From Escherichia coli (GTDB lineage: Bacteria > Pseudomonadota > Gammaproteobacteria > Enterobacterales > Enterobacteriaceae): a stretch of DNA of 64,000 nucleotides. Within the stretch, counting starts at the first letter, position 1. Each line of letters starts with the position of its first letter. This document shows, piece by piece, positions 26,140 through 45,874 of this stretch. The stretch is taken from NCBI RefSeq assembly GCF_050920415.1, contig NZ_CP169309.1, one strand, 5' to 3'. The notes beneath the pieces were generated by a model. It saw nothing but the letters and a program-made list of their open reading frames with translations, did no database searches and was not told the DNA's origin. The position numbers and the translations under genes are program-made.

Positions 26140-29100
26140 ATGATGGAAATTCTGCGTGGTTCGCCTGCATTGTCGGCATTCCGAATCAACAAACTGCTGG
26201 CACGTTTTCAGGCTGCCAGGCTCCCGGTTCACAATATTTACGCCGAGTATGTCCATTTTGCTGACCTCAATGCGCCGTTAAACGATGATGAGCACGCACA
26301 ACTTGAACGCCTGCTGAAATATGGCCCGGCACTCGCCAGCCACGCCCCGCAAGGTAAACTCCTGCTGGTGACCCCGCGTCCTGGTACCATCTCTCCCTGG
26401 TCTTCGAAAGCGACCGATATCGCCCATAACTGCGGGCTGCAACAGGTAAACCGCCTTGAGCGCGGCGTTGCTTACTATATAGAAGCCGGTACGCTGACCC
26501 ATGAACAATGGCAGCAGGTGACCGCTGAACTGCACGACCGCATGATGGAAACGGTCTTTTCTGCTTTAGATGATGCAGAGCAGCTGTTTGCACACCATCA
26601 ACCGACTCCGGTCACCAGCGTTGATTTGCTGGGGCAGGGACGTCAGGCGCTAATCGACGCTAACCTGCGTCTTGGCCTGGCACTGGCGGAAGATGAAATT
26701 GACTATCTGCAGGATGCATTCACAAAGCTGGGTCGTAACCCGAACGACATCGAGCTGTATATGTTCGCCCAGGCGAACTCTGAGCACTGCCGCCATAAAA
26801 TTTTTAACGCCGACTGGATTATCGACGGTGAACAACAGCCGAAATCGCTGTTCAAGATGATCAAAAACACCTTCGAAACCACGCCGGATCACGTTCTCTC
26901 GGCTTATAAAGATAACGCCGCCGTAATGGAAGGTTCTGAAGTGGGCCGCTACTTTGCTGACCACGAAACGGGCCGCTACGATTTCCATCAGGAACCGGCG
27001 CATATCCTGATGAAAGTAGAAACCCACAACCACCCAACGGCGATTTCTCCGTGGCCGGGTGCGGCAACCGGTTCCGGTGGCGAAATTCGTGATGAAGGTG
27101 CCACCGGCCGCGGCGCGAAGCCGAAAGCTGGTCTGGTCGGTTTCTCCGTATCCAACCTGCGTATTCCTGGCTTTGAACAACCGTGGGAAGAAGATTTCGG
27201 TAAGCCTGAGCGCATTGTCACCGCGCTGGACATCATGACAGAAGGTCCGCTGGGCGGCGCGGCATTTAACAACGAATTTGGTCGTCCGGCACTGAACGGC
27301 TACTTCCGTACCTATGAAGAAAAAGTGAACAGCCACAACGGCGAAGAGCTGCGCGGGTATCACAAACCGATCATGCTGGCGGGTGGGATCGGCAACATTC
27401 GCGCCGATCACGTACAAAAAGGCGAGATCAACGTCGGTGCGAAACTGGTCGTTCTCGGCGGCCCGGCAATGAACATCGGTCTTGGCGGCGGCGCGGCCTC
27501 TTCCATGGCCTCCGGCCAGTCTGACGCGGATCTCGATTTCGCGTCCGTTCAGCGCGATAACCCGGAAATGGAACGTCGCTGTCAGGAAGTGATCGACCGC
27601 TGCTGGCAGCTTGGCGACGCGAACCCGATTCTGTTTATCCACGACGTCGGCGCAGGCGGTCTTTCTAACGCCATGCCGGAGCTGGTGAGCGACGGCGGAC
27701 GCGGCGGTAAATTTGAACTGCGCGATATCCTGAGCGACGAACCGGGCATGAGCCCGCTGGAAATCTGGTGTAACGAATCCCAGGAACGCTACGTGCTGGC
27801 CGTTGCTGCCGATCAGTTACCGCTGTTTGACGAACTGTGTAAGCGTGAGCGCGCACCGTACGCGGTGATTGGTGAGGCCACCGAAGAATTACATCTTTCT
27901 CTGCACGATCGTCATTTTGATAATCAACCCATCGATCTGCCGCTCGACGTACTACTTGGCAAAACGCCGAAGATGACCCGCGATGTGCAAACGCTGAAAG
28001 CGAAAGGCGACGCGTTGTCCCGTGAAGGGATCACCATCGCTGACGCGGTGAAGCGTGTGTTACATCTGCCGACTGTGGCGGAGAAAACCTTTCTGGTGAC
28101 CATCGGCGATCGCAGCGTAACCGGCATGGTGGCGCGCGATCAGATGGTGGGTCCGTGGCAGGTGCCGGTCGCTAACTGCGCAGTCACTACCGCCAGCCTC
28201 GACAGTTACTACGGTGAAGCGATGGCAATAGGCGAACGTGCGCCAGTTGCACTGCTGGATTTCGCCGCTTCTGCCCGCCTGGCGGTCGGTGAAGCGTTAA
28301 CTAACATCGCCGCTACGCAGATTGGCGATATCAAACGCATTAAACTTTCCGCTAACTGGATGGCGGCAGCAGGTCATCCAGGTGAAGACGCGGGCCTGTA
28401 TGAAGCCGTTAAAGCGGTGGGCGAAGAGCTTTGTCCGGCGCTGGGCCTGACGATTCCGGTGGGTAAAGACTCTATGTCGATGAAAACCCGCTGGCAGGAA
28501 GGTAGCGAAGAGCGCGAAATGACCTCGCCGCTTTCGCTGGTGATTTCTGCATTTGCCCGCGTGGAAGATGTGCGTCACACCATCACGCCGCAGCTTTCTA
28601 CCGAAGATAACGCACTGCTGCTGATTGATCTGGGCAAAGGCAATAACGCGCTGGGCGCAACGGCGCTGGCGCAGGTTTATCGTCAGCTTGGCGACAAACC
28701 GGCAGATGTACGCGATGTCGCGCAACTGAAAGGCTTCTATGATGCGATTCAGGCGCTGGTTGCACAGCGTAAGCTGCTCGCGTATCACGACCGCTCTGAT
28801 GGCGGGCTGGTGGTAACGCTGGCGGAAATGGCCTTTGCTGGTCATTGCGGCATTGACGCGGATATCGCCACTCTGGGTGACGATCGCCTGGCGGCGTTGT
28901 TTAACGAAGAACTGGGGGCGGTGATTCAGGTGCGCGCTGCTGACCGTGAAGCGGTCGAAGCGGTACTGGCACAGCATGGCCTTGCTGATTGCGTCCATTA
29001 TGTTGGGCAGGCGGTTTCCGGTGACCGTTTTGTAATTACCGCCAACGGGCAGACTGTATTCAGCGAAAGCCGCACCACGTTGCGTGTCTGGTGGGCAGAA

Positions 29101-30027
29101 ACTACCTGGCAGATGCAGCGCCTGCGTGACAACCCGGAGTGTGCCGATCAGGAACATCAGGCGAAATCTAACGACGCCGATCCGGGCCTGAATGTGAAAC
29201 TGTCGTTTGATATCAACGAAGATGTGGCAGCACCGTATATTGCCACTGGTGCGCGTCCGAAAGTTGCCGTGCTGCGTGAGCAGGGGGTGAACTCGCATGT
29301 TGAAATGGCGGCAGCTTTCCACCGTGCAGGCTTCGATGCACTCGATGTGCATATGAGCGACCTGCTGGCTGGACGCACGGGCCTGGAGGATTTCCACGCT
29401 CTGGTAGCGTGCGGCGGTTTCTCCTACGGTGATGTGCTGGGTGCTGGTGAAGGCTGGGCGAAGTCTATCCTGTTCAATGACCGTGTACGCGATGAGTTTG
29501 CAACCTTCTTCCACCGTCCGCAAACGCTGGCGCTGGGGGTATGTAACGGTTGCCAGATGATGTCTAACCTACGCGAACTGATCCCAGGTAGCGAGTTGTG
29601 GCCACGTTTCGTGCGTAACACCTCCGATCGCTTTGAAGCGCGTTTCAGCCTGGTAGAAGTGACCCAAAGCCCGTCTCTGCTGTTGCAAGGGATGGTGGGT
29701 TCGCAGATGCCGATTGCTGTCTCTCACGGCGAAGGACGCGTGGAAGTGCGCGATGCGGCGCATCTGGCGGCACTGGAAAGCAAAGGGCTGGTGGCACTGC
29801 GCTATGTCGATAACTTCGGCAAAGTCACTGAAACCTACCCGGCTAACCCGAACGGTTCTCCGAATGGTATTACGGCGGTCACGACTGAAAGTGGTCGAGT
29901 CACCATTATGATGCCGCACCCGGAACGTGTTTTCCGTACTGTCAGTAACTCCTGGCATCCGGAAAACTGGGGCGAGGATGGCCCATGGATGCGTATTTTC
30001 CGCAATGCGCGTAAGCAGTTGGGGTAA
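26140..30027 (+). CDS. purL: Phosphoribosylformylglycinamidine synthase (FGAM synthase)
   Basis: 1295-aa [27 protein letters not shown]..., C-terminal glutaminase domain. Confidence 0.97.
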
Positions 30028-30049
30028 GTCGTCAAACTATTGGTTTTGC

Positions 30050-30082
30050 TGCCCGGATGTGGCATTCACGCCGCATCCGGCA
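30050..30082. repeat. REP element downstream of purL
   Basis: gcccggatgtggcattcacgccgcatccggca, REP consensus in inverted orientation. Confidence 0.75.
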
Positions 30083-30103
30083 TTAAACGCCGACCACTAT
30101 CAT

Positions 30104-30130
30104 AAGCTCCCAGCTCCGGGAGCTTTTTTT
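30104..30130 (+). terminator. Rho-independent terminator of purL
   Basis: aagctccc-agctcc-gggagctt hairpin followed by T7. Confidence 0.75.
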
Positions 30131-30131
30131 G

Positions 30132-30245
30132 TGTCTGTAAATCACGACAATGGGTGGTTTACTGTGTCGCTTTTTGGCGACATTTAATTGATTGATTTTA
30201 TTTGGGTCTAATAAATTTATCTTAAGGTGTCTCTTTTTAGCGACA
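30132..30245. promoter_or_regulatory. Three TGTC-N10-GACA sites (~30132-30149, 30165-30182, 30228-30245): GlrR/QseF activator binding sites upstream of glmY
   Basis: tgtctgtaaatcacgaca, tgtcgctttttggcgaca, tgtctctttttagcgaca; arrangement matches the known GlrR-dependent glmY upstream region. Confidence 0.65.
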
Positions 30246-30333
30246 CAATGGCTGATTGACACCCAAATAGCGAAGAAGTCATAAATCCATCAAAACAACG
30301 TATAATCAGTACGTTACCAAACTATTTTATTTA

Positions 30334-30349
30334 TTGGCACAGTTACTGC
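30334..30349 (+). promoter_or_regulatory. Sigma-54 (-24/-12) promoter of glmY
   Basis: TGGCAC-agtta-CTGCA with GG at -24 and GC at -12, about 12 nt upstream of the glmY 5' end. Confidence 0.65.
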
Positions 30350-30361
30350 ATAATAGTCATC

Positions 30362-30548
30362 AGTGGCTCATTCACCGACTTATGTCAGCCCCTTCGGGAC
30401 GTGCTACATAAAATTCGAATGACGCACAACAAGGTGCCTGCCGTCCAACTTCTGATATCAGCTTAGCTATATCAACCCTCGGGCGAAACGTCGAGTTAGG
30501 CACCGCCTTATTCCATAACAAAGCCGGGTCATTCCCGGCTTTGTTGTA
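30362..30548 (+). ncRNA. glmY: GlmY small RNA (regulator of glmS via GlmZ/RapZ)
   Basis: Starts AGTGGCTCATTCACCGACTTATGTCAGCCCC as recalled for GlmY; ends at aagccgggtcattcccggctt hairpin plus U-rich tail; lies between purL and glrK. Confidence 0.8.
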
Positions 30549-30603
30549 TCTGAACTTCCCCTCGGTTAGCATCAGGCTATTCGCGTCTGACGAGAGTAAC
30601 ACC

Positions 30604-32031
30604 TTGAAACGCTGGCCCGTTTTTCCCCGCTCATTACGACAACTGGTAATGCTGGCATTTTTGCTGATTCTGCTACCCCTGTTGGTGCTGGCATGGCAAG
30701 CCTGGCAAAGCCTGAATGCGCTTAGCGATCAGGCGGCGCTGGTTAACCGCACTACGCTTATTGATGCCCGGCGCAGTGAAGCGATGACCAACGCGGCGCT
30801 GGAGATGGAGCGTAGCTACCGTCAGTATTGCGTGCTGGATGACCCAACCCTGGCGAAGGTTTATCAAAGCCAGCGCAAGCGTTATAGCGAAATGCTCGAT
30901 GCCCACGCAGGCGTACTGCCGGACGATAAACTATACCAGGCATTGCGTCAGGACTTGAACAATCTGGCTCAACTTCAGTGTAACAACAGCGGTCCCGATG
31001 CTGCCGCCGCCGCGCGTCTGGAAGCTTTTGCCAGCGCCAATACCGAAATGGTACAGGCCACGCGCACAGTGGTGTTCTCTCGCGGACAGCAGCTTCAGCG
31101 TGAAATCGCCGAACGTGGGCAATATTTTGGTTGGCAATCGCTGGTGTTATTTCTGGTAAGTCTGGTGATGGTGCTGCTCTTCACGCGGATGATTATCGGC
31201 CCGGTGAAAAATATTGAACGGATGATCAACCGTCTGGGGGAAGGGCGTTCTCTGGGCAATAGCGTTTCGTTCAGTGGACCGAGTGAGTTACGCTCGGTTG
31301 GGCAACGTATTCTTTGGTTAAGTGAGCGCCTGTCATGGCTGGAATCCCAGCGCCATCAATTCTTAAGACATTTATCTCATGAATTAAAAACCCCGCTGGC
31401 GAGTATGCGAGAGGGCACTGAATTACTGGCTGACCAGGTTGTCGGGCCGCTTACGCCCGAGCAAAAAGAGGTGGTGAGCATCCTTGATAGCAGCAGCCGC
31501 AATTTGCAAAAACTGATCGAACAACTGCTTGATTACAACCGTAAACAGGCGGACGGTGCAGTGGAACTGGAGAGTGTAGAGTTAGCACCGCTGGTGGAAA
31601 TGGTGGTTTCTGCTCATAGCCTGCCCGCACGGGCTAAAATGATGCATACCGACGTCGATCTCAAAGCAACTGCTTGCCTGGCGGAGCCAATGCTGCTGAT
31701 GAGCGTACTGGATAATCTTTACTCCAATGCGGTGCACTACGGGGCTGAATCCGGTAACATTTGCCTTCGCAGCAGTTTACATGGCGCGCGGGTTTATATT
31801 GATGTCATCAATACGGGCACACCCATTCCGCAAGAGGAACGCGCCATGATCTTCGAACCCTTTTTTCAGGGAAGCCACCAGCGAAAAGGGGCGGTGAAGG
31901 GCAGCGGTCTGGGATTAAGCATTGCCAGGGATTGTATTCGCCGTATGCAGGGGGAACTGCATCTGGTCGACGAGAGCGGGCAAGAGGTTTGCTTCCGCAT
32001 TGAATTACCGTCGTCGAAAAACACGAAATAA
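30604..32031 (+). CDS. glrK: Sensor histidine kinase GlrK (QseE)
   Basis: ORF 30541..32031; start set at in-frame TTG 30604 (475 aa, clear of the glmY terminator); TM segment, HAMP and H-box (LSHELKTPL). Confidence 0.8.
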   Translation: MKRWPVFPRSLRQLVMLAFLLILLPLLVLAWQAWQSLNALSDQAALVNRTTLIDARRSEAMTNAALEMERSYRQYCVLDDPTLAKVYQSQRKRYSEMLDAHAGVLPDDKLYQALRQDLNNLAQLQCNNSGPDAAAAARLEAFASANTEMVQATRTVVFSRGQQLQREIAERGQYFGWQSLVLFLVSLVMVLLFTRMIIGPVKNIERMINRLGEGRSLGNSVSFSGPSELRSVGQRILWLSERLSWLESQRHQFLRHLSHELKTPLASMREGTELLADQVVGPLTPEQKEVVSILDSSSRNLQKLIEQLLDYNRKQADGAVELESVELAPLVEMVVSAHSLPARAKMMHTDVDLKATACLAEPMLLMSVLDNLYSNAVHYGAESGNICLRSSLHGARVYIDVINTGTPIPQEERAMIFEPFFQGSHQRKGAVKGSGLGLSIARDCIRRMQGELHLVDESGQEVCFRIELPSSKNTK

Positions 32032-32195
32032 TGTTAAGAGCCTATCCCATCAGGCTATTTTATTTGCCAGTTTGGCCCCGTGCAGTGCTCGAAATCCTTA
32101 CGTACTACGTGTACGCTCCGGTTTCTCCGCGCTGTCCATGTCCAAACTGCCTGCAACAATTACGCCCACTGGGATAGGTTTTAAGTCTGGTGAAT

Positions 32196-32909
32196 ATGCG
32201 ACACATTTTTCAACGATTATTGCCCCGACGGCTATGGCTGGCAGGGCTGCCATGTCTGGCATTGCTGGGTTGCGTGCAGAGTCACAATAAGCCAGCTATT
32301 GATGCGCCAGCAGAAGAAAAAATTCCGGTTTATCAACTGGCTGACTATCTTTCTACTGAATGTAGCGACATCTGGGCGCTGCAAGGTAAATCAACCGAAA
32401 CCAATCCGCTTTACTGGCTGCGGGCGATGGATTGTGCTGAACGTTTAATGCCTGCGCAGTCGCGTCAGCAAGCCCGCCAATATGACGACGGCAGCTGGCA
32501 AAATACCTTCAAACAAGGGATTTTGCTCGCCGACGCCAAAATTACGCCTTATGAGCGCCGCCAGCTGGTCGCGCGCATTGATGCGTTAAGTACCGAGATC
32601 CCGGCACAGGTTCGCCCACTGTATCAACTCTGGCGCGACGGTCAGGCGCTGCAACTGCAACTGGCGGAAGAGCGCCAACGCTACAGCAAACTCCAGCAGT
32701 CCAGCGACAGCGAACTGGATACTTTGCGCCAGCAACATCACGTTCTACAGCAGCAACTGGAGCTCACCACCCGCAAGCTGGAAAATCTGACCGATATTGA
32801 ACGTCAGCTCTCGACCCGCAAACCGGCTGGCAATTTCTCGCCGGATACGCCGCACGAGAGTGAAAATCCCGCGCCATCTACCCATGAGGTCACTCCTGAT
32901 GAGCCATAA
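32196..32909 (+). CDS. qseG: Outer-membrane lipoprotein QseG (YfhG)
   Basis: ORF 32190..32909 with lipoprotein signal (LALLGC) and Q-rich coiled-coil C-terminus; start 32190 or 32196. Confidence 0.8.
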   Translation: MRHIFQRLLPRRLWLAGLPCLALLGCVQSHNKPAIDAPAEEKIPVYQLADYLSTECSDIWALQGKSTETNPLYWLRAMDCAERLMPAQSRQQARQYDDGSWQNTFKQGILLADAKITPYERRQLVARIDALSTEIPAQVRPLYQLWRDGQALQLQLAEERQRYSKLQQSSDSELDTLRQQHHVLQQQLELTTRKLENLTDIERQLSTRKPAGNFSPDTPHESENPAPSTHEVTPDEP

Positions 32910-34233
32910 GCCTGCGCATTTATTACTGGTCGATGACGATCCTGGATTGCTGAAACTGCTTGGCTTGCGTCTGACCAGCGAAGGCTACAGCGTGGTCACG
33001 GCAGAAAGTGGAGCTGAAGGATTGCGGGTACTGAATCGCGAAAAAGTAGATTTAGTCATCAGCGACCTGCGGATGGATGAAATGGACGGTATGCAGTTGT
33101 TTGCCGAAATCCAGAAAGTGCAGCCGGGAATGCCGGTAATTATTCTTACCGCCCATGGTTCCATTCCCGATGCGGTTGCCGCGACACAGCAGGGCGTGTT
33201 CAGTTTCCTCACCAAGCCTGTCGATAAAGACGCGCTGTATCAGGCAATTGACGATGCTCTGGAGCAATCAGCTCCCACTACCGACGAACGCTGGCGCGAG
33301 GCGATTGTCACTCGTAGTCCGTTAATGTTGCGCTTGTTGGAACAGGCGAGGCTGGTGGCGCAGTCAGATGTTAGCGTTTTGATTAACGGTCAGAGCGGTA
33401 CCGGGAAAGAGATTTTTGCCCAGGCGATCCACAACGCCAGCCCGCGCAACAGCAAGCCGTTTATTGCTATTAACTGTGGCGCATTGCCCGAGCAATTACT
33501 GGAGTCCGAGCTGTTTGGTCATGCGCGTGGCGCGTTTACTGGCGCTGTCAGCAATCGCGAAGGTTTATTCCAGGCGGCGGAAGGCGGTACGCTGTTTCTC
33601 GATGAGATTGGCGACATGCCCGCACCGTTGCAGGTCAAACTGCTACGCGTGTTGCAGGAGCGCAAAGTGCGCCCGCTGGGGAGCAACCGCGATATTGATA
33701 TCGACGTGCGGATTATTTCCGCCACTCACCGTGACCTGCCAAAGGCGATGTCGCGCGGGGAATTCCGTGAAGATCTCTACTATCGCCTCAACGTTGTCAG
33801 TCTGAAAATCCCGGCATTGGCGGAGCGCACAGAAGACATTCCGCTACTGGCAAACCACTTATTGCGCCAGGCGGCAGAGCGACATAAACCGTTTGTCCGC
33901 GCATTCTCCACCGATGCAATGAAACGACTGATGACCGCGAGCTGGCCGGGTAATGTGCGCCAGTTGGTCAACGTGATTGAACAGTGCGTGGCGCTAACAT
34001 CATCTCCGGTGATTAGTGATGCGTTAGTCGAGCAGGCGCTGGAGGGCGAAAATACGGCTCTGCCAACCTTTGTTGAGGCGCGTAATCAGTTTGAACTCAA
34101 CTACTTGCGTAAGCTGCTGCAAATCACCAAAGGTAATGTCACCCACGCGGCGAGAATGGCGGGGCGCAACCGGACAGAATTTTATAAACTGCTTTCCCGA
34201 CACGAGCTGGATGCAAACGATTTCAAGGAATGA
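32899..34233 (+). CDS. glrR: Sigma-54-dependent response regulator GlrR (QseF)
   Basis: ORF 32797..34233; start at ATG 32899 ([18 protein letters not shown]) gives 444 aa; receiver domain, AAA+ sigma-54 activator domain (GESGTGKE-like GQSGTGKE), C-terminal HTH. Confidence 0.9.
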
Positions 34234-34257
34234 ATCGGCGTAATGTGTTACGTTTAG

Positions 34258-34632
<375 letters not shown>

Positions 34633-34675
34633 ACCGCGTCAGGGTTGCCGGATGTCTCCATCCGGCAACCTCAAA

Positions 34676-35866
34676 TCACAGCACTTTATGCGGGCCAAAG
34701 CATTCGTAATGAATGTTTTCCTGTTTCACACCCAGGTCCACTAACTGTTTCGCGGCAAACTGCATGAAGCCAACCGGGCCGCAGAGATAGAACTGCATTG
34801 TCGGATCGCTGAACGCACCTTCCAGTTTGCTCAAATCCATCAGACCTTCACTATCAAACTGACCTTTAGCGCGATCGGCTTCGCTCGGCTGACGATACCA
34901 GGTGTGCGCGGTAAAGCGTGGCAGTGCTTGCCCCAGTTCCTTAACTTCATCGGCAAAGGCATGAACATCGCCATTTTCTGCCGCATGGAACCAGTTTACC
35001 TCAGCGCTATGACCTGCTTTTGCCAGCGTGTCGAGCATTGCCAGCATTGGTGTTTGACCGACACCGGCAGAGATTAACGTCACCGGCGTGTCATCTGCGA
35101 TAGCCATAAAGAAATCACCTGCCGGAGCGACCAGTTTCACGACATCGCCAACGTTGGCGTGATTGTGTAACCAGTTTGATACCTGCCCACCCTCTTCGCG
35201 TTTCACTGCAATACGATAGCCTTTGCCATCCGGTTTGCGCGTCAAAGAGTACTGACGAATTTCCTGATGTGGGAAACCTTCCGGCTTCAGCCAGACGCCG
35301 AGATATTGCCCTGGACGGTATTCCGCCACTGCGCCGCCGTCCACCGGCTCAAGTTCGAAACTGGTGATAAGCGTGCTGCGCGGTGTTTTAGCTACAATGC
35401 GGAAATCGCGAGTACCTTCCCAGCCACCGGCTTTGCTGGCGTTTTCGTTATAGATTTCCGCCTCGCGATTAATAAATACATTAGCCAGTACGCCATAGGC
35501 TTTACCCCACGCGTCCAGTACTTCCTGGCCCGGGCTGAACATTTCGTCCAGCGTCGCCAACAGGTGTTCACCGACGATATTGTATTGTTCCGGTTTGATC
35601 TGGAAGCTGGTGTGTTTCTGAGCGATTTTTTCTACCGCTGGTAACAGCGCAGGCAGGTTTTCAATATTGCTGGCGTAGGCGGCAATAGCGTTAAACAGGG
35701 CTTCACGTTGATCGCCATTACGCTGGTTACTCATGTTAAAAATTTCTTTGAGTTCTGGGTTATGAGTAAACATACGGTCGTAGAAATGGGCGGTTAACTT
35801 TGGCCCTGTTTCCACCAGTAAAGGGATGGTGGCTTTTACTGTAGCGATGGTTTGAGCGTCAAGCAT
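34676..35866 (-). CDS. hmp: Flavohemoprotein (nitric oxide dioxygenase)
   Basis: 396 aa from ATG 35866 ([17 protein letters not shown]...), globin domain plus FAD/NAD reductase domain. Confidence 0.95.
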
Positions 35867-35892
35867 ATGGTCTTCCTTTTTTTGCATCTTAA

Positions 35893-35915
35893 TTGATGTA
35901 TCTCAAATGCATCTT
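35893..35915 (-). promoter_or_regulatory. NsrR operator in hmp promoter
   Basis: Reverse strand reads AAGATGCATTTGAGATACATCAA, an 11-1-11 inverted repeat matching the NsrR consensus, ~30 nt upstream of hmp ATG. Confidence 0.6.
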
Positions 35916-36193
35916 ATAAAAAATAGCCCTGCAATGTAAATGGTTCTTTGGTGTTTTTCATGAAGAATGTGATGAAGTGAAAAATTTGCATCACAAACCT
36001 GAAAAGAAATCCGTTTACGGTTGCAAGCTCTTTATTCTCCAAAGCCTTGCGCAGCCTGAAGGTAATCGTTTGCGTAAATTCCTTTGTCAAGACCTGTTAT
36101 CGCACAATGATTCGGTTATACTGTTCGCCGTTGTCCAACAGGACCGCCTATAAAGGCCGAAAATTTTATTGTTAGCTGAGTCAGGAGATGCGG

Positions 36194-37447
36194 ATGTTAA
36201 AGCGTGAAATGAACATTGCCGATTATGATGCCGAACTGTGGCAGGCTATGGAGCAGGAAAAAGTACGTCAGGAAGAGCACATCGAACTGATCGCCTCCGA
36301 AAACTACACCAGCCCGCGCGTAATGCAGGCGCAGGGTTCTCAGCTGACCAACAAATATGCTGAAGGTTATCCGGGCAAACGCTACTACGGCGGTTGCGAG
36401 TATGTTGATATCGTTGAACAACTGGCGATCGATCGCGCGAAAGAACTGTTCGGCGCTGACTACGCTAACGTCCAGCCGCACTCCGGCTCCCAGGCGAACT
36501 TTGCGGTCTACACCGCGCTGCTGGAACCCGGCGACACCGTTCTGGGTATGAACCTGGCGCATGGCGGTCACCTGACTCACGGTTCTCCGGTTAACTTCTC
36601 CGGTAAACTGTACAACATCGTTCCTTACGGTATCGATGCTACCGGTCATATCGACTACGCCGATCTGGAAAAACAAGCCAAAGAACACAAGCCGAAAATG
36701 ATCATCGGTGGCTTCTCTGCATATTCCGGCGTGGTTGACTGGGCGAAAATGCGTGAAATCGCTGACAGCATCGGTGCTTACCTGTTCGTTGATATGGCGC
36801 ACGTTGCGGGACTGGTCGCTGCTGGCGTCTACCCGAACCCGGTTCCTCATGCTCACGTAGTGACTACCACCACTCACAAAACCCTGGCGGGTCCGCGCGG
36901 CGGCCTGATCCTGGCGAAAGGCGGTAGCGAAGAACTGTACAAAAAACTGAACTCTGCCGTTTTCCCTGGTGGTCAGGGCGGCCCGTTGATGCACGTAATC
37001 GCTGGTAAAGCGGTTGCTCTGAAAGAAGCGATGGAACCTGAGTTCAAAACTTACCAACAGCAGGTCGCGAAAAACGCTAAAGCGATGGTAGAAGTATTCC
37101 TGGAGCGCGGTTACAAAGTGGTTTCCGGCGGTACTGATAACCACCTGTTCCTGGTTGATCTGGTTGATAAAAACCTGACCGGTAAAGAAGCTGACGCCGC
37201 TTTGGGCCGTGCTAACATCACCGTTAACAAAAACAGCGTACCGAACGATCCGAAGAGCCCGTTTGTAACCTCCGGTATTCGCGTGGGTACTCCGGCGATT
37301 ACACGTCGTGGCTTTAAAGAAGCCGAAGCGAAAGAACTGGCTGGCTGGATGTGTGACGTGCTGGACAGCATCAATGATGAAGCCGTTATCGAGAGCATCA
37401 AAGGTAAAGTTCTCGATATCTGCGCACGTTACCCGGTTTACGCATAA
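36194..37447 (+). CDS. glyA: Serine hydroxymethyltransferase
   Basis: 417 aa from ATG 36194 ([22 protein letters not shown]...), PLP-lysine motif TTTTHKTL. Confidence 0.97.
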
Positions 37448-37486
37448 GCGAAACGGTGATTTGCTGACAATGTGCTCGTTGTTCAT

Positions 37487-37584
37487 GCCGGATGCGGCGT
37501 GAACGCCTTATCCGGCCTACAAATTATTGCAAATTCAAGATATTGCAATCTCCGTGTAGGCCTGATAAGCGTAGCGCATCAGGC
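37487..37584. repeat. BIME: inverted pair of REP elements downstream of glyA, followed by bidirectional terminator hairpin (~37605-37628)
   Basis: gccggatgcggcgtgaacgccttatccggcctac ... gtaggcctgataagcgtagcgcatcaggc, nearly identical to the BIME at 7304-7401; caaggcttcc-ttag-ggaagccttg hairpin. Confidence 0.85.
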
Positions 37585-37644
37585 AATTTTTCGTTTGTGA
37601 TCATCAAGGCTTCCTTAGGGAAGCCTTGTTACGTTATCGTGCCA

Positions 37645-38838
37645 TCAAATCTGTCGTAACTGCGCCTCAACATACAAATAGCCAATCCCCAGCACCTGCT
37701 GTGCGCGGCTTAATTGCCCAAAGCCAATCTGTGTCGCTTTCACGCTCGGTCCTTCGTCACGGTCGAACGGGTTAAATCCTGTCTGGCGAATAATGGAATT
37801 AAGCCAGTTCTCACCAAAGGCGCAGCTGCGACCATACAGCCAAATCTGATTAATATTGAGGATATTGAGGAAGTTATACAGACTCAAACCAATGGCGTTG
37901 GCACTGCGGTCAACCCAGCTGGTGATCCACGGTTCTCCACTCTGCCAGGCAGCGATTAATTGTGCGGTTGTCAATTTTTCAGGATCAAGCTGAGTATTAA
38001 CCGGTTGTGATTTTAGCCATACTCGCGCCTGTTTTTTTAATGCGCTTAACGAGGCGACGGTTTCCAGGCAGCCATAACGTCCACAGTCGCAGGCGACGCC
38101 ATCCGGATTAACGATGGTGTGACCAATCTGTCCGCTACCATACAAACTGCCGCGATAAATTTGCTCGTTAATCACGAACGACGAGCCAATACCGTAATCA
38201 ACGTTGATCACGCAGAAATCCCGTCCTTGCGAATTATTTTGCCATTTCTCCGCCAGCGCCAGCATCACGCAGTCATTATCGACCATCACCCGAATGCCCA
38301 GCTTCTCTTCCAGCAGATACTTCACCTCAACCGGTGTTGTCCACGGCGCTTGCGGCATGGTTTGCGACACGCCAGTCACTGGATCAACCTGACCGTGGAT
38401 AGCCAGCGCCAGGTTGATGGTACGGTCTGGCCACAGTTTACGATGGCGATGCCAGCATTTTTCGATTTCGGACAACAGAGCCTGCGGTGTCGGTGCATCA
38501 ATCTGAAAATATTCAAATTCGCCTTTCGGACTTAAACAGGCATTAGCGACCTGACACTCAATGCTGGTGGGCGTCACGTTCAGGCACAGCGTCCAGTCAC
38601 CTTCCGGCGCGATCAGCCATGTACCGCTACTGTGCCCGCGCGTCTGGCTTTCATCGTCGATATTCACCACCCGTTTTTCGCTTTCCAGCTCCTGCAAAAT
38701 ATTACTGACCGCTGGAATTGAAATTTGCGCCAGCCGGGCCAGCGTTGATTTATTGGCGCGCTTTTGCCGGTACAGCAGTTCCAGAATCACGCATTTGTTA
38801 TGGTGGCGAATCTGTTGATTATTAATGCAGGCTCTCAT
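37645..38838 (-). CDS. yphH: ROK-family (NagC/Mlc-like) transcriptional regulator YphH
   Basis: ORF 37645..38844; N-terminal HTH, ROK sugar-kinase-like core with CxCGxxGC zinc motif (CDCGRYGCLE). Confidence 0.85.
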   Translation of the reverse strand: MRACINNQQIRHHNKCVILELLYRQKRANKSTLARLAQISIPAVSNILQELESEKRVVNIDDESQTRGHSSGTWLIAPEGDWTLCLNVTPTSIECQVANACLSPKGEFEYFQIDAPTPQALLSEIEKCWHRHRKLWPDRTINLALAIHGQVDPVTGVSQTMPQAPWTTPVEVKYLLEEKLGIRVMVDNDCVMLALAEKWQNNSQGRDFCVINVDYGIGSSFVINEQIYRGSLYGSGQIGHTIVNPDGVACDCGRYGCLETVASLSALKKQARVWLKSQPVNTQLDPEKLTTAQLIAAWQSGEPWITSWVDRSANAIGLSLYNFLNILNINQIWLYGRSCAFGENWLNSIIRQTGFNPFDRDEGPSVKATQIGFGQLSRAQQVLGIGYLYVEAQLRQI

Positions 38839-38955
38839 CTTCACTAAACCTTGTTTAGTTAATTGCGTGATTATTCCGCGAAAACATTGCCAGATTGTTC
38901 AATACACTGCCACAAATCTTTTAATTCAGTATGTCTTGTTAATATTGAGGGCACT

Positions 38956-41900
38956 ATGACTCCAGTAAAAGTGTGGCAAGAGCGCGTTGAGATCCCGACT
39001 TATGAAACCGGGCCGCAGGATATACACCCTATGTTCCTGGAAAATCGCGTTTATCAGGGATCGTCCGGCGCGGTTTATCCCTACGGCGTGACCGATACGC
39101 TGAGCGAGCAGAAAGTCCTGAAATCCTGGCAAGCGGTGTGGCTGGAAAACGACTATATCAAAGTGATGATCCTGCCGGAGTTGGGCGGTCGGGTGCATCG
39201 CGCTTGGGATAAAGTGAAACAGCGCGATTTTGTCTATCACAATGAGGTGATTAAACCGGCGCTGGTAGGGCTATTGGGGCCGTGGATTTCGGGCGGGATT
39301 GAGTTTAACTGGCCACAACACCATCGCCCGACTACCTTTATGCCCGTTGATTTCACCCTCGAAGCCCATGAAGACGGCGCACAGACGGTGTGGGTCGGCG
39401 AAACGGAGCCGATGCACGGTTTACAGGTGATGACCGGTTTCACACTACGCCCTGACCGGGCGGCGCTGGAGATTGCCAGCCGCGTCTATAACGGCAATGC
39501 CACGCCGCGTCATTTCTTGTGGTGGGCCAACCCGGCAGTGAAAGGTGGCGAAGGGCATCAGAGCGTTTTCCCGCCGGATGTAACGGCGGTGTTTGATCAC
39601 GGCAAACGGGCTGTTTCAGCTTTCCCTATCGCTACCGGCACTTACTACAAAGTGGACTACTCCGCCGGAGTGGATATTTCTCGCTATAAAAATGTGCCAG
39701 TGCCGACTTCGTATATGGCCGAAAAATCGCAGTACGATTTTGTTGGCGCATGGTGTCACGATGAAGATGGCGGTTTGCTACACGTTGCCAACCACCACAT
39801 CGCGCCAGGTAAAAAACAGTGGAGCTGGGGACACAGTGAATTCGGCCAGGCGTGGGATAAGAGCCTGACCGACAATAACGGCCCGTATATCGAACTGATG
39901 ACGGGTATTTTTGCCGATAACCAGCCCGATTTTACCTGGCTTGATGCTTACGAAGAGAAGCGTTTCGAGCAGTATTTCCTGCCTTATCATTCTCTGGGCA
40001 TGGTGCAAAACGCCTCCCGCGATGCGGTGATTAAACTCCAGCGTAGCGAGCGGGGGATTGAGTGGGGGCTGTATGCCATCTCCCCGTTGAACGGATACCG
40101 GCTGGCGATCCGCGAAATCGGCAGATGCAACGCGTTACTCGACGATGCCGTGGCTCTGACACCAGCGAACGCCATTCAGGGCGTGTTGCATGGTATCAAT
40201 CCTGACAGACTAACCATTGAACTCTCCGATGCTGACGGCAATATCGTACTGAGTTATCAGGAACATCAGCCGCAAGAGTTGCCGTTGCCGGACGTCGCCA
40301 AAGCGCCACTGGCAGCACAAGAGATTACCAGTACAGATGAAGCCTGGTTTATCGGGCAGCATCTGGAGCAATATCATCATGCCAGCCGTTCCCCCTTCGA
40401 TTACTACCTGCGCGGCGTGGCGCTGGACCCGCTGGATTATCGCTGTAACCTGGCGTTGGCGATGCTGGAATATAACCGCGCCGACTTCCCGCAAACGGTG
40501 GCGTATGCCACTCAGGCGCTGAAACGCGCACATGCGTTGAACAAAAACCCGCAGTGCGGACAGGCGAGTTTAATTCGCGCCAGTGCTTACGAACGTCAGG
40601 GGCAATATCAACAAGCCGAAGAGGATTTCTGGCGTGCGGTCTGGAGCGGCAACAGTAAAGCGGGTGGCTATTATGGTCTGGCACGGCTGGCTGCGCGTAA
40701 TGGTAACTTTGACGCTGGTCTGGATTTTTGCCAACAAAGTCTTCGCGCCTGCCCAACCAATCAGGAAGTGCTTTGCCTGCATAACCTGCTGCTGGTGTTA
40801 AGTGGTCGTCAGGACAACGCGCGTTTGCAGCGAGAGAAGTTGCTGCGTGATTATCCGCTGAACGCCACTCTGTGGTGGCTGAACTGGTTCGATGGTTGTA
40901 GCGAATCTGCCCTCGTACAGTGGCGAGGTCTGTGTCAGGGACGCGACGTTAACGCCCTGATGACCGCCGGGCAACTGATTAACTGGGGCATGCCCGCTCT
41001 GGCGGCAGAGATGCTGAACGCACTGGACTGTCAGCGCACGCTACCGCTTTACCTGCAAGCCAGCTTGCTGCCGAAAGCTGAACGCGGCGAACTGGTCGCA
41101 AAAGCCATTGATGTTTTCCCGCAGTTTGTCCGTTTCCCTAATACGCTGGAAGAGGTTGCGGCGCTGGAGAGTATTGAAGAGTGCTGGTTTGCCCGGCATT
41201 TACTGGCCTGTTTCTACTACAACAAGCGCAGCTACGGCAAAGCAATTGCCTTATGGCAACGTTGCGTTGAGATGTCGCCGGAGTTTGCCGACGGCTGGCG
41301 TGGGCTGGCAATCCATGCGTGGAATAAGCAGCATGATTATGAACTGGCCGCGCGTTATCTTGATAGTGCTTATCAGCTTGCGCCGCAGGATGCTCGTCTG
41401 CTTTTTGAACGGGATTTGCTGGATAAGCTAACCGGAGCCGCACCGGAGAAACGACTGGCTCGTCTGGAAAATAATCTGGAAATTGCTCTGAAACGCGACG
41501 ACATGACCGCAGAATTGCTCAATTTGTGGCATCTCACTGGTCAGGCGGACAAAGCGGCAGACATTCTCGCCACGCGTAAATTCCATCCGTGGGAAGGCGG
41601 AGAAGGGAAAGTCACCAGTCAGTTTATCCTCAACCAGTTGTTACGCGCCTGGCAACACCTTGATGCCAGACAACTGCAGCAGGCCAGCGAACTGCTTCAT
41701 GCCGCGCTGCACTATCCGGAGAATTTAAGCGAAGGCCGTTTACCGGGGCAAACTGACAACGACATCTGGTTCTGGCAGGCGATATGTGCCAAAGCCCAGG
41801 GCGATGAAACTGCAGCAACGCGCTGTTTACGTCTGGCGGCGACTGGCGATCGCACCATTAACATTCACAGTTATTACAACGATCAACCGGTTGATTATCT

Positions 41901-42237
41901 CTTCTGGCAAGGGATGGCGTTGCGATTACTGGGCGAACAAAAAACCGCACAGCAACTGTTTAGTGAAATGAAACAGTGGGCGCAAGAGATGGCAAAAACC
42001 AGTATCGAAGCGGATTTCTTTGCCGTCTCGCAACCTGACTTGTTATCGCTGTATGGCGATTTACAACAGCAACATAAAGAAAAATGCCTGATGGTGGCGA
42101 TGCTGGCGGCCGCGGGATTAGGCGAGATTGCGCAATACGAATCTGCTCGCGCTGAATTGACGGCGATTAATCCGGCCTGGCCGAAAGCGGCATTATTCAC
42201 CACCGTGATGCCTTTTATTTTTAACCGCGTTCACTAA
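38956..42237 (+). CDS. yphG: Large uncharacterised protein YphG (N-terminal domain of unknown function plus C-terminal TPR-like helical repeats), 1093 aa
   Basis: ORF 38863..42237; start at ATG 38956 (MTPVKVWQERVEIP) after GAGGG; no signal peptide seen. Confidence 0.8.
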   Translation: MTPVKVWQERVEIPTYETGPQDIHPMFLENRVYQGSSGAVYPYGVTDTLSEQKVLKSWQAVWLENDYIKVMILPELGGRVHRAWDKVKQRDFVYHNEVIKPALVGLLGPWISGGIEFNWPQHHRPTTFMPVDFTLEAHEDGAQTVWVGETEPMHGLQVMTGFTLRPDRAALEIASRVYNGNATPRHFLWWANPAVKGGEGHQSVFPPDVTAVFDHGKRAVSAFPIATGTYYKVDYSAGVDISRYKNVPVPTSYMAEKSQYDFVGAWCHDEDGGLLHVANHHIAPGKKQWSWGHSEFGQAWDKSLTDNNGPYIELMTGIFADNQPDFTWLDAYEEKRFEQYFLPYHSLGMVQNASRDAVIKLQRSERGIEWGLYAISPLNGYRLAIREIGRCNALLDDAVALTPANAIQGVLHGINPDRLTIELSDADGNIVLSYQEHQPQELPLPDVAKAPLAAQEITSTDEAWFIGQHLEQYHHASRSPFDYYLRGVALDPLDYRCNLALAMLEYNRADFPQTVAYATQALKRAHALNKNPQCGQASLIRASAYERQGQYQQAEEDFWRAVWSGNSKAGGYYGLARLAARNGNFDAGLDFCQQSLRACPTNQEVLCLHNLLLVLSGRQDNARLQREKLLRDYPLNATLWWLNWFDGCSESALVQWRGLCQGRDVNALMTAGQLINWGMPALAAEMLNALDCQRTLPLYLQASLLPKAERGELVAKAIDVFPQFVRFPNTLEEVAALESIEECWFARHLLACFYYNKRSYGKAIALWQRCVEMSPEFADGWRGLAIHAWNKQHDYELAARYLDSAYQLAPQDARLLFERDLLDKLTGAAPEKRLARLENNLEIALKRDDMTAELLNLWHLTGQADKAADILATRKFHPWEGGEGKVTSQFILNQLLRAWQHLDARQLQQASELLHAALHYPENLSEGRLPGQTDNDIWFWQAICAKAQGDETAATRCLRLAATGDRTINIHSYYNDQPVDYLFWQGMALRLLGEQKTAQQLFSEMKQWAQEMAKTSIEADFFAVSQPDLLSLYGDLQQQHKEKCLMVAMLAAAGLGEIAQYESARAELTAINPAWPKAALFTTVMPFIFNRVH

Positions 42238-42333
42238 ACCTTATTAACTGTAATATTTGAGCGGCACGCGCTGCCGCTCACGCTCAAATAATTAAAATAA
42301 GCCGTTGTAAATAAAAACCCTACAGGAGGCACT

Positions 42334-43317
42334 ATGCCTAAAAAAATGAGAACAACCCGTAATCTATTATTAATGGCTACGCTATTAGGTAGCACACTAT
42401 TTGCCAACGCTGCGGATAAAGAAATGACCATTGGCGCAATATACCTTGATACCCAGGGATATTACGCTGGAGTGCGCCAGGGCGTTCAGGATGCGGCAAA
42501 AGATTCTTCAGTACAGGTACAGTTAATTGAAACTAACGCCCAGGGCGATATTTCGAAAGAAAGTACCTTTGTTGATACCCTCGTGGCGCGTAATGTCGAT
42601 GCCATTATTTTGTCGGCAGTGTCCGAAAATGGCAGTAGCCGCACCGTTCGCCGCGCCAGTGAGGCGGGTATTCCGGTGATTTGCTACAACACCTGTATTA
42701 ATCAAAAGGGTGTCGATAAATATGTCTCGGCATATCTGGTTGGCGACCCGCTGGAATTTGGTAAAAAACTGGGTAACGCTGCCGCCGATTATTTTATTGC
42801 CAACAAAATTGACCAGCCGAAAATTGCCGTCATCAATTGCGAAGCCTTTGAAGTTTGTGTGCAACGACGTAAAGGGTTTGAAGAAGTATTAAAAGCCCGC
42901 GTTCCCGGCGCGAAAATTGTCGCTAATCAGGAAGGGACTGTTTTAGATAAAGCGATTTCTGTTGGTGAAAAATTGATTATCTCCACGCCAGATCTCAACG
43001 CCATTATGGGGGAATCGGGGGGAGCGACACTCGGCGCGGTAAAAGCGGTACGTAATCAAAATCAGGCTGGAAAAATTGCCGTTTTCGGTTCGGATATGAC
43101 CACTGAAATTGCACAGGAACTGGAAAATAACCAGGTGCTGAAAGCGGTAGTGGATATTTCCGGTAAGAAAATGGGCAATGCTGTTTTCGCGCAAACATTG
43201 AAGGTTATCAATAAACAAGCCGACGGTGAAAAAGTGATTCAGGTGCCAATCGATCTCTATACCAAAACGGAAGACGGTAAACAGTGGCTGGCAACGCACG
43301 TTGATGGTCTGCCCTAA
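42334..43317 (+). CDS. yphF: Periplasmic sugar-binding protein of ABC transporter (YphF)
   Basis: 327-aa ORF with signal peptide, ribose/galactose-binding-protein-like. Confidence 0.85.
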   Translation: MPKKMRTTRNLLLMATLLGSTLFANAADKEMTIGAIYLDTQGYYAGVRQGVQDAAKDSSVQVQLIETNAQGDISKESTFVDTLVARNVDAIILSAVSENGSSRTVRRASEAGIPVICYNTCINQKGVDKYVSAYLVGDPLEFGKKLGNAAADYFIANKIDQPKIAVINCEAFEVCVQRRKGFEEVLKARVPGAKIVANQEGTVLDKAISVGEKLIISTPDLNAIMGESGGATLGAVKAVRNQNQAGKIAVFGSDMTTEIAQELENNQVLKAVVDISGKKMGNAVFAQTLKVINKQADGEKVIQVPIDLYTKTEDGKQWLATHVDGLP

Positions 43318-43339
43318 TCGCTGATTCGCAGAGGTCCCT

Positions 43340-44851
43340 ATGTTCACGGCAACAGAGGCAGTTCCGGTAGCAAAAGTGGTGGCAGGAAATAAGCGTTACC
43401 CCGGCGTCGTTGCGCTGGATAACGTTAACTTTACGCTCAATAAAGGCGAAGTTCGCGCGCTGTTAGGCAAAAACGGTGCGGGAAAATCGACCCTCATTCG
43501 AATGCTTACCGGTAGCGAACGTCCGGATAGCGGTGATATCTGGATTGGCGAGACGCGACTGGAAGGCGACGAAGCTACGCTGACTCGCCGTGCCGCTGAA
43601 CTGGGGGTACGCGCGGTTTATCAGGAATTAAGTCTGGTGGAAGGGCTGACAGTGGCGGAAAACCTCTGCCTCGGTCAGTGGCCCCGCCGCAACGGCATGA
43701 TTGATTACCTGCAAATGGCGCATGACGCCCAACGTTGCTTGCAGGCGTTGGGCGTTGACGTTAGTCCTGAACAACTTGTTTCGACACTAAGCCCGGCGCA
43801 AAAGCAACTGGTGGAAATTGCGCGGGTGATGAAAGGCGAGCCGCGCGTGGTCATTCTTGATGAACCCACCAGCTCGCTTGCCAGTACGGAAGTTGAACTG
43901 GTAATCAGCGCCGTGAAAAAAATGTCAGCACTGGGCGTGGCGGTGATTTATGTCAGCCACCGGATGGAAGAAATTCGCCGCATTGCCTCCTGTGCCACCG
44001 TTATGCGCGATGGTCAGGTGGCGGGCGATGTGATGCTCGAAAACACCTCAACCCGTCATATTGTGTCGCTGATGCTCGGGCGCGATCACGTTGATCTTGC
44101 ACCGGTTGTAGCTCAGGAGATTGCGGACCAGACCGTACTGGAAGTTCGCGCGTTACGCCACAGACCAAAACTTACGGAGATCAGTTTTTCCCTGCGTCGT
44201 GGCGAAGTGCTCGGCATTGCTGGCCTGCTGGGGGCAGGGCGCAGTGAATTGCTGAAGGCGATTGTTGGGCTGGAGACGTATGAACAGGGCGAAATTGTTA
44301 TCAACGGCGAGAAAATCACGCGCCCCGATTACGGCGAGATGCTGAAACGCGGTATTGGCTATACGCCAGAAAACCGCAAAGAAGCGGGGATCATTCCCTG
44401 GCTGGGCGTTGACGAAAATACGGTACTGACCAATCGGCAAAAAATCAGCGCCAACGGTGTGCTGCAATGGTCCACCATCCGCCGCCTGACCGAAGAGGTG
44501 ATGCAGCGGATGACGGTCAAGGCAGCCAGTAGCGAAACGCCTATTGGTACGCTTTCTGGCGGCAATCAGCAAAAAGTGGTGATCGGTCGTTGGGTCTATG
44601 CCGCCAGCCAGATTTTATTGCTCGACGAGCCAACGCGCGGCGTCGATATCGAAGCCAAACAGCAGATTTACCGTATTGTCCGCGAGCTGGCTGCCGAAGG
44701 GAAAAGCGTGGTGTTTATCTCCAGTGAAGTGGAGGAGTTGCCGCTGGTGTGCGACCGCATCCTGTTATTACAGCACGGTACGTTCTCGCAGGAGTTTCAC
44801 TCGCCGGTCAATGTGGATGAGCTGATGTCCGCCATTCTGTCTGTGCACTGA
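43340..44851 (+). CDS. yphE: Sugar ABC transporter ATP-binding protein with duplicated ATPase domains (YphE)
   Basis: 503-aa ORF; Walker A GKNGAGKST, signature LSGGNQQK, second NBD. Confidence 0.9.
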   Translation: MFTATEAVPVAKVVAGNKRYPGVVALDNVNFTLNKGEVRALLGKNGAGKSTLIRMLTGSERPDSGDIWIGETRLEGDEATLTRRAAELGVRAVYQELSLVEGLTVAENLCLGQWPRRNGMIDYLQMAHDAQRCLQALGVDVSPEQLVSTLSPAQKQLVEIARVMKGEPRVVILDEPTSSLASTEVELVISAVKKMSALGVAVIYVSHRMEEIRRIASCATVMRDGQVAGDVMLENTSTRHIVSLMLGRDHVDLAPVVAQEIADQTVLEVRALRHRPKLTEISFSLRRGEVLGIAGLLGAGRSELLKAIVGLETYEQGEIVINGEKITRPDYGEMLKRGIGYTPENRKEAGIIPWLGVDENTVLTNRQKISANGVLQWSTIRRLTEEVMQRMTVKAASSETPIGTLSGGNQQKVVIGRWVYAASQILLLDEPTRGVDIEAKQQIYRIVRELAAEGKSVVFISSEVEELPLVCDRILLLQHGTFSQEFHSPVNVDELMSAILSVH

Positions 44852-44875
44852 TGAATTTTACCGAGGAACCTGAAG

Positions 44876-45874
44876 ATGTCTGCTTCGTCATTATCATTGC
44901 CGCAGGGCAAGAGCGTCTCGCTCAAACAATTTGTCAGTCGCCATATTAATGAGATTGGTTTGCTGGTGGTAATCGCCATTCTTTATCTGGTCTTCTCCCT
45001 GAACGCACCGGGCTTTATCTCATTGAATAATCAGATGAACGTGCTGCGCGATGCTGCCACCATCGGGATTGCCGCCTGGGCAATGACGCTGATTATTATC
45101 TCCGGTGAAATTGATGTCAGTGTTGGACCGATGGTGGCTTTTGTCTCGGTGTGCCTGGCATTTTTGCTGCAATTTGACGTTCCACTGGCGATTGCTTGTC
45201 TGCTGGTGTTGCTGTTAGGCGCGCTGATGGGGACGCTGGCGGGCGTGCTGCGCGGCGTGTTTAACGTGCCCAGTTTCGTTGCCACGCTGGGGCTGTGGAG
45301 CGCCCTGCGCGGAATGGGGCTGTTTATGACTAATGCCCTGCCAGTGCCGATTGACGAAAACGAGGTACTGGACTGGCTGGGGGGACAATTTCTCGGTGTG
45401 CCAGTATCCGCGCTGATCATGATGGTGTTGTTTGCGCTGTTTGTGTTCATTAGCCGCAAAACCGCCTTCGGGCGCTCGGTTTTTGCTGTTGGCGGTAATG
45501 CCACGGCGGCGCAGTTGTGCGGTATTAATGTTCGTCGGGTACGCATTCTTATTTTTACCCTTTCGGGATTATTAGCGGCGGTGACCGGCATTTTGTTGGC
45601 GGCGCGCCTCGGTTCTGGTAACGCAGGTGCCGCAAACGGTCTGGAGTTTGACGTGATCGCCGCGGTCGTGGTTGGCGGTACGGCACTTTCCGGCGGTCGC
45701 GGTTCCTTGTTCGGTACGTTGCTTGGTGTGCTGGTGATTACGCTAATCGGTAACGGTCTGGTGCTGCTCGGGATTAACTCCTTTTTCCAGCAGGTGGTGC
45801 GCGGCGTCATCATCGTGGTGGCGGTGCTGGCGAATATCTTGCTGACCCAGCGTAGCAGTAAAGCGAAACGCTAA
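44876..45874 (+). CDS. yphD: Sugar ABC transporter permease (YphD)
   Basis: 332-aa polytopic membrane ORF, RbsC/AraH-like. Confidence 0.85.
   Translation: MSASSLSLPQGKSVSLKQFVSRHINEIGLLVVIAILYLVFSLNAPGFISLNNQMNVLRDAATIGIAAWAMTLIIISGEIDVSVGPMVAFVSVCLAFLLQFDVPLAIACLLVLLLGALMGTLAGVLRGVFNVPSFVATLGLWSALRGMGLFMTNALPVPIDENEVLDWLGGQFLGVPVSALIMMVLFALFVFISRKTAFGRSVFAVGGNATAAQLCGINVRRVRILIFTLSGLLAAVTGILLAARLGSGNAGAANGLEFDVIAAVVVGGTALSGGRGSLFGTLLGVLVITLIGNGLVLLGINSFFQQVVRGVIIVVAVLANILLTQRSSKAKR

Follow-up and report, generated by a model that had tools for sequence, protein, structure and literature searches.

The 23-bp imperfect dyad AAGATGCATTTGAGATACATCAA, read on the hmp strand at 35915-35893 of the 64-kb window (the whole stretch of Escherichia coli DNA analysed here), is by its sequence almost certainly the NsrR operator at the sigma-70 promoter of hmp; we put the probability at about 0.95. 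The feature is the already characterised E. coli hmp NsrR operator with a nested FNR box. For a textbook site of this kind confirmation adds no new biology. What it yields is a coordinate-mapped hmp-glyA control region, and the case demonstrates that a real operator is recognisable from sequence alone.

The operator is located in the 327-bp spacer (35867-36193) between two divergent genes, exactly the bounds that the sequence-only reading had drawn for an hmp-glyA divergent regulatory region. On the minus strand, hmp (hmpA), encoding the NO-inducible flavohaemoprotein, occupies 34676..35866 as an open reading frame with its ATG at 35866-35864. On the plus strand, glyA, encoding serine hydroxymethyltransferase, occupies 36194..37447, with its ATG at 36194 and a Shine-Dalgarno sequence AGGAG at 36183-36187. 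Both products were identified with NCBIfam models of equivalog/subfamily level: Hmp matched NF009805 (NO-inducible flavohemoprotein) with 626.6 bits against a cut-off of 432, and GlyA matched NF000586 (serine hydroxymethyltransferase) with 678.2 bits against a cut-off of 335. The names hmpA and glyA are also those used by RefSeq in E. coli genomes with the same spacer, where the hmp coordinates are identical. The spacer was matched in 5425 of 5426 complete E. coli genomes, and E. coli MFDS1022581 shares a 20-kb part of the window (26000-46000) at 100% identity. The regulator gene nsrR lies outside the window, approximately 1.7 Mb from hmp in K-12, and was found in 5425 of the 5426 complete genomes. 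Downstream of glyA, a 119-nt element (37479-37597) was observed that is 89% identical to a second copy at 7296-7414, in the yfiE-srmB interval according to the offset annotation of strain 2013C-4282. Both copies are REP/BIME elements with GCCGGATGCGGCGTGAACGCCTTATCCGGCCTAC-type units.

NsrR sites have been described as an 11-1-11 arrangement in which two AAGATGCATTT-like 11-mers stand inverted with one base between them, 23 bp in total (PMC5320621, PMC10783083). In the window the dyad reads AAGATGCATTT-G-AGATACATCAA (minus strand, 35893..35915), and its identification draws on the literature match, a position weight matrix (PWM) and conservation. The left, promoter-side arm AAGATGCATTT covers 35905..35915, one central G stands at 35904, and the right, transcribed-side arm AGATACATCAA covers 35893..35903. 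The right arm is degenerate, its reverse complement TTGATGTATCT being equal to the left arm at 7 of 11 positions. An inverted repeat had been claimed from the letters, and an imperfect dyad with arms 7/11 alike is indeed present, but it escaped a generic repeat finder and forms no hairpin. The output of the generic inverted-repeat search, run with a 6-nt seed, was limited to short direct repeats and an unrelated palindrome (35954-35967), the operator dyad being absent. Single-strand DNA folding of the dyad gave -1.3 kcal/mol (z = -0.55 versus shuffles), and no stable hairpin was seen. The operator is weak as a plain inverted repeat, yet strong as a match to a known recognition sequence.

The latter statement was quantified with a PWM trained on 25 other 11-1-11 NsrR sites of strain CFT073 (Table 4 of PMC5320621), the hmp site being left out. 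The operator scored 18.57 bits, the highest value in the 64 kb, with the runner-up at 12.67 bits, and this score is inside the range of the training sites (12.2-31.7 bits). At this score the chance level is P = 2.6e-7 per position, corresponding to 0.0165 expected matches per 64 kb, or to 0.0012 if only the spacer with its own AT-rich base content is considered. Among single 11-mer half-sites of the 64 kb, none scores higher than the left arm (15.63 bits). The 23-mer itself is present as a single copy; no second match with up to 3 mismatches was found in the window, and 100 shuffles gave zero. Another locus of the window, yfhB/pgpC, is listed as NsrR-bound (PMC5320621; K-12 ChIP-chip study). 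Around the pgpC/yfhB start (~22900-23400) no 11-1-11 match was found nearby, and the half-sites are weak (at most 7.5 bits).

The same 23-mer is in print. Its plus-strand form TTGATGTATCTCAAATGCATCTT is given as the CFT073 hmp NsrR site, ChIP-seq positive and with ln P -18.22 (PMC5320621 Table 4; Mehta et al. 2015), and its 19-bp core GATGCATTTgAgATaCATC had been predicted in 2005 to be an NsrR site, with position -48 relative to hmp in E. coli (PMC1274295 Table S2; Rodionov et al.). Together with the top PWM rank, these two records bear out the proposal of an NsrR 11-1-11 operator abutting hmp. The comparison with curated NsrR sites, which had been suggested as a check, thus ended in identity between the window 23-mer and the published one. 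In the hmp-strand orientation the 23-mer gave no full-text literature match, the published table giving the other strand. In CFT073, the hmp ChIP-seq peak was 3.79-fold enriched (-log10 P 32), with its summit 34 nt inside hmp (PMC5320621 Table 2). ChIP data placing NsrR elsewhere would have spoken against the assignment; the NsrR peak sits at hmp (PMC5320621). The enrichment is modest, however, and the summit is found ~72 bp from the operator centre, so ChIP alone cannot fix the site to these 23 bp. Two 11-mers are listed for hmp in the same Table 2, namely AAGATGCATTT as 'hmp (44)' and AAGATGCAAAA as 'hmp (19)', the numbers being nt upstream. Placed on the window, they correspond to 35915-35905 and 35890-35880, respectively. 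According to PMC5320621, hmp was also a target in an earlier K-12 ChIP-chip study. NsrR is described as a NO-sensitive Fe-S repressor of hmp (PMC5320621, PMC6950321, PMC2884951, PMC10783083), and NO-sensitive binding of NsrR to the Salmonella hmp site was observed in EMSA (PMC10783083).

In vivo occupancy by NsrR and NO-sensitive repression are derived from the literature, and the present analysis contributes identity, statistics, position and conservation. For the strain of the window, the assignment to NsrR rests on sequence identity with experimentally tested strains. The hmp-proximal 115 bp of the spacer are identical to K-12 MG1655, and 3645 of 5418 E. coli genomes share the 79 bp adjoining hmp without a difference. 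The NsrR operator of E. coli hmp was reportedly studied by Bodenmiller and Spiro in 2006, and in K-12 it is said to have been covered by the ChIP-chip work of Partridge in 2009.

Conservation was analysed beyond E. coli. A scan for the Hmp protein with one genome per species yielded 80 Enterobacteriaceae loci, 78 of them with enough upstream DNA, and these 78 other species plus the window made up a comparison of 79 sequences. In 78 of 78 loci glyA is divergent from hmp, with spacers of 272-346 bp. The best PWM match of the spacer was found at the orthologous position in all 79 sequences, 29-50 nt (mode 38) upstream of the hmp ATG, with scores from 18.5 to 31.0 bits (median 26.6). The majority-base frequency was 0.96 in the left arm, 0.60 at the central base, 0.88 in the right arm and 0.59 in the downstream UTR. 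Conserved arms around a variable centre are what a protein site of the 11-1-11 type would show, and fit a promoter alone less well. Since the left arm shares bases with the -10 hexamer, part of its conservation may stem from the promoter itself.

A promoter scan placed the hmp -35 hexamer TTTACA at 35935..35940 and the -10 hexamer TAAGAT at 35911..35916 (both minus strand), separated by an 18-nt spacer. The -35 is invariant in the 79 sequences, and the -10 has a majority-base frequency of 0.99. The transcription start is the A at 35903 on the minus strand, leaving a 37-nt 5' UTR; it is the base mapped experimentally for hmp and marked, here by brackets, in the E. coli line TTTG(A)GATACA (PMC1274295 Fig. 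S3). It is located 7-8 nt downstream of the predicted -10. Given the hexamers and the mapped start, the operator reaches from -12 to +11, and five of the six -10 bases as well as the transcription start fall within it. The hmp ATG follows 26 nt after its 3' end, in keeping with the distance of at most about 30 nt estimated from the letters. Because the -10 overlaps the left arm, one could argue that the core promoter alone produces the match, in which case the -10, the discriminator and the start would explain the conservation and the dyad would be a chance AT-rich near-palindrome. The failure of the generic inverted-repeat search to report the dyad suits this explanation, as does a best PWM score that once reached 20.1 bits in mononucleotide shuffles of the window. 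Yet the expected number of matches is low in the 64 kb and lower still in the spacer at its own composition (0.0165 and 0.0012, as given above). Moreover, conservation runs to +11, past the promoter elements, before dropping to 0.59, the central position is variable, and the identical sequence is ChIP-positive (PMC5320621). We consider a mere promoter by-product to be extremely improbable.

Downstream of the operator, the hmp leader contains a third, weak half-site-like motif, AAGATGCAAAA (minus strand, 35880..35890), which corresponds to direct repeat D1 and has a score of 5.00 in PMC5320621. The left arm is 25 bp upstream of it, and the Shine-Dalgarno sequence AGGAAG (minus strand, 35872..35877), which was read from the sequence and is part of the conserved block AAAGGAAG, follows closely on its downstream side. 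The third motif scores 7.68 bits, rank 97 among the half-sites of the window, and is Escherichia-specific, the 79 sequences having there a mean identity of 0.45 to that of the window. An in-frame ATG at 35885-35887 (minus strand), 21 nt upstream of the annotated hmp start, would give a 403-aa open reading frame. As an hmp start, this ATG at 35887 was rejected: it is 16 nt into the leader, lacks a Shine-Dalgarno sequence, falls within the third motif and is unconserved outside Escherichia. With no Shine-Dalgarno sequence and no conservation beyond that genus, it leaves the annotated hmp start in place. Since transcription starts at 35903, the right arm and the third motif are transcribed, which would agree with a repeat acting in RNA, as a structured element of the hmp 5' UTR that controls translation or stability. 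The left arm, however, is upstream of the start, and the dyad is therefore absent from the RNA. In addition, the predicted fold of the 57-nt leader is no more stable than those of shuffled sequences (-3.4 kcal/mol, z = 0.29), and conservation is poor (0.59) in the UTR from the operator to the Shine-Dalgarno sequence. Rfam, scanned over 35600-36500, returned only a chance mir-67 match (18.6 bits against a gathering score of 53). An RNA element is just as hard to credit as the promoter by-product, and binding of NsrR to the DNA remains the preferred reading.

The right half of the NsrR site is at the same time an FNR-type box. The plus-strand sequence TTGATGTATCTCAA (35893..35906) differs by one mismatch from the FNR consensus TTGAT-N4-ATCAA (PMC4601167), and on the hmp strand the same 14-mer, with its one mismatch, reads TTGAGATACATCAA. 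The sequence-only reading described the NsrR site correctly but missed this second role of its right arm. The centre of the box, 35899.5, is at about +4.5, a position compatible with repression. An FNR site at hmp was reportedly placed at +5.5 by Cruz-Ramos in 2002. Six matches to the FNR pattern at 1 mismatch were found in the window versus 2.2 expected, and the pattern alone is therefore weak evidence. Two FNR-type boxes, among them the perfect TTGATTTAAATCAA, were observed 53 bp apart (5061-5074 and 5114-5127) upstream of grcA (yfiD). These tandem boxes (5061-5127) presumably match the FNR sites known for the grcA (yfiD) promoter.

Two bases distinguish the Escherichia right arm from the family majority AAATACATCAT, at the second position (G for A) and at the last (A for T). 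The central G (35904) is Escherichia-specific as well, and together with the two right-arm changes it creates the FNR-type box. The Escherichia site has the lowest NsrR score of the 79 (18.5-18.6 bits), and it is the weakest match because its right arm doubles as an FNR-type box. The box was found within 1 mismatch in only 11 of the 79 sequences (Escherichia and some Citrobacter) and is not conserved family-wide. On these sequences it appears as a lineage-specific overlay, not as a family-wide feature. In the literature, the hmp FNR site is likewise described as conserved only in close relatives (PMC1274295). FNR regulation, including repression, of hmp has been reported. The FNR overlap is a refinement already in print, and likewise the extra 11-mer.

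One might go further and regard the element as in essence an FNR operator, TTGAGATACATCAA, through which hmp is repressed anaerobically, with the NsrR resemblance incidental. Such a view could appeal to the single mismatch from the consensus (PMC4601167), to the FNR regulation of hmp described in the literature, and to the Escherichia-specific bases of the centre and right arm, which are precisely the bases that raise the similarity to the FNR consensus. It accounts poorly for the left arm, which is outside the FNR box although it has the highest conservation of the site (0.96) and, within the window, the top NsrR half-site score. Nor does it agree with the family: 11 of 79 sites come within 1 mismatch of the FNR consensus, whereas 79 of 79 reach at least 18.5 bits as NsrR sites, and the limited conservation of the FNR site in PMC1274295 points in the same direction. 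The NsrR ChIP-seq cultures were aerobic (PMC5320621), a condition in which FNR is inactive. The opposite of a loss of NO induction in an fnr mutant with intact nsrR, combined with no change in an nsrR mutant, is described in published data. We hold an FNR-only element to be very unlikely. The most fitting view is that FNR uses the operator alongside NsrR and is no alternative to it.

The remainder of the spacer had been assigned to the glyA promoter. Elements of that promoter are indeed found there, but this assignment is too simple, because the hmp -35 (35940-35935) falls outside the 23-mer and the MetR-type sites are reported for both genes. One MetR-type site, TGCAAATTTTTCA (minus strand, 35978..35990), has 1 mismatch to TGAAnnTnnTTCA and is part of a conserved block. 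A second candidate, TGAAAAGAAATCC (plus strand, 36000..36012), was found by eye in the conserved block CGGATTTCTTTTCAGG, which is among the best-conserved parts of the spacer. This candidate has 2 mismatches to the eight fixed bases TGAA...TTCA, and its central T is also unmatched. The MetR pattern is no commoner in the window than by chance (25 matches found versus 27 expected). MetR is reported to act on both glyA and hmp through two sites in the hmp-glyA region (PMC5002191, which also gives the consensus), and we infer that 35978-35990 and 36000-36012 may be the footprinted sites.

Upstream of the glyA promoter, AGGTAATCGTTTGCGT (plus strand, 36060..36075) lies in the nearly invariant block TTTACGCAAACGATTA and was read as a candidate PurR-type box with 3 mismatches. 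PurR-type calls were made against the palindromic purine-box consensus. The best PurR-type box of the window is ACGCAAACGGTTTCGT at 26048-26063 (2 mismatches), ~90 bp upstream of the purL start, and is presumably the purL operator. The glyA core promoter region (plus strand, 36084..36122), placed by the promoter scan and by conservation, contains TTGTCA at 36084-36089 and two candidate -10 hexamers, AATGAT at 36106-36111 and TATACT at 36117-36122; TATACT is the better conserved of the two.

Natural variation was observed on both sides of the spacer. In the 79 bp adjoining hmp, 1773 of 5418 E. coli genomes depart from the window sequence. The A7 tract at 35877-35883, which separates the third motif from the hmp Shine-Dalgarno sequence, varies in length. 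The clinical E. coli isolate MS14384 (NZ_LR130562.1; locus L085, 1363-1718) has a spacer of 356 bp owing to a 29-bp tandem duplication, TTTGAGATACATCAATTAAGATGCAAAAA, in the hmp leader, which copies the right arm with the FNR-type box and the third motif. In the two variants examined, A8 in place of A7 and the MS14384 duplication, the operator itself is unchanged. In a Buttiauxella metagenome-assembled genome the operator has been rearranged naturally as well: an insertion upstream of hmp gives a second copy of the left arm, AAGATGCATTAAAAGATGCATATTAAATGCATC. On the glyA side, 248 bp of the spacer represent a rare allele, present with at least 99% identity in only 18 of 5425 genomes; positions 35954-35967, 36017, 36052 and 36159 were noted for it. 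A 2-nt difference from K-12 at 35961-35962 creates the palindrome TTTTTCATGAAGAA (35954-35967), which falls within the least conserved part of the spacer and is situated between the MetR-type site and the hmp -35.

A mechanism can be proposed from the layout. A dimer of the Rrf2-family protein NsrR, loaded with its Fe-S cluster, would occupy the operator and exclude RNA polymerase from the hmp promoter; promoter occlusion is the most likely mechanism of hmp repression. NO would nitrosylate or destroy the cluster, NsrR would leave the DNA, and hmp would be transcribed, providing NO dioxygenase. In Escherichia, where the right arm is shaped into an FNR-type box, anaerobic FNR could repress from about +4.5 on the same DNA, and sharing of the operator by NsrR and FNR is suggested for the window strain by its sequence. 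MetR-type sites 75-110 bp further upstream would be common to hmp and the divergent glyA.

The sequences themselves display the weakened NsrR site, the FNR overlay and the third motif. A more speculative and rather doubtful extension is that the Escherichia operator is a deliberately weakened NsrR site, its right arm converted into an FNR box and a third half-site, AAGATGCAAAA, added, so that two Fe-S sensors compete or cooperate on 36 bp. If this were true, the A7/A8 tract and the 29-bp duplication of MS14384 might tune basal Hmp levels. The weak Escherichia operator is also of relevance to the possibly easier escape of hmp, compared with ytfE or hcp, from NsrR repression.

Compared with known systems, the operator is closest to that of K-12 and CFT073, where the 23-mer is identical and its position relative to hmp, the -10 and the start is the same. 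There are no operator differences; the rare allele of the window strain is confined to the glyA-proximal part of the spacer. The strongest E. coli site, the ytfE operator AAGATGCATTTAAAATGCATCTT, has the same 11-1-11 layout, and both of its arms equal the left arm of hmp, AAGATGCATTT. The ytfE site is a perfect palindrome (ln P -25.1; PMC5320621), whereas the right arm of hmp is degenerate (ln P -18.2), because the FNR-type box is also encoded there. The hmp sites of other Enterobacteriaceae (Citrobacter, Enterobacter, Klebsiella, Salmonella and others) resemble that of the window, with a mode of 38 nt between site centre and ATG, and have in common with it the invariant -35 TTTACA, the block TATAAGATGCATTT and the divergent glyA. 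They differ in the right half: the majority sequence TAAAATACATCAT is nearer to the NsrR consensus, while the Escherichia sequence TGAGATACATCAA (18.6 bits) gains the FNR match. A more distant relative is IscR, the Rrf2 paralogue of NsrR, and an iscR gene with the iscSUA-hscBA operon was observed at the 3' end of the window (~59.8-64 kb). Type-1 IscR sites are also dyads over core promoters that are bound by a dimer of an Fe-S Rrf2 protein. They differ from the NsrR operator in their recognition sequence and in the signal, which is Fe-S status and not NO.
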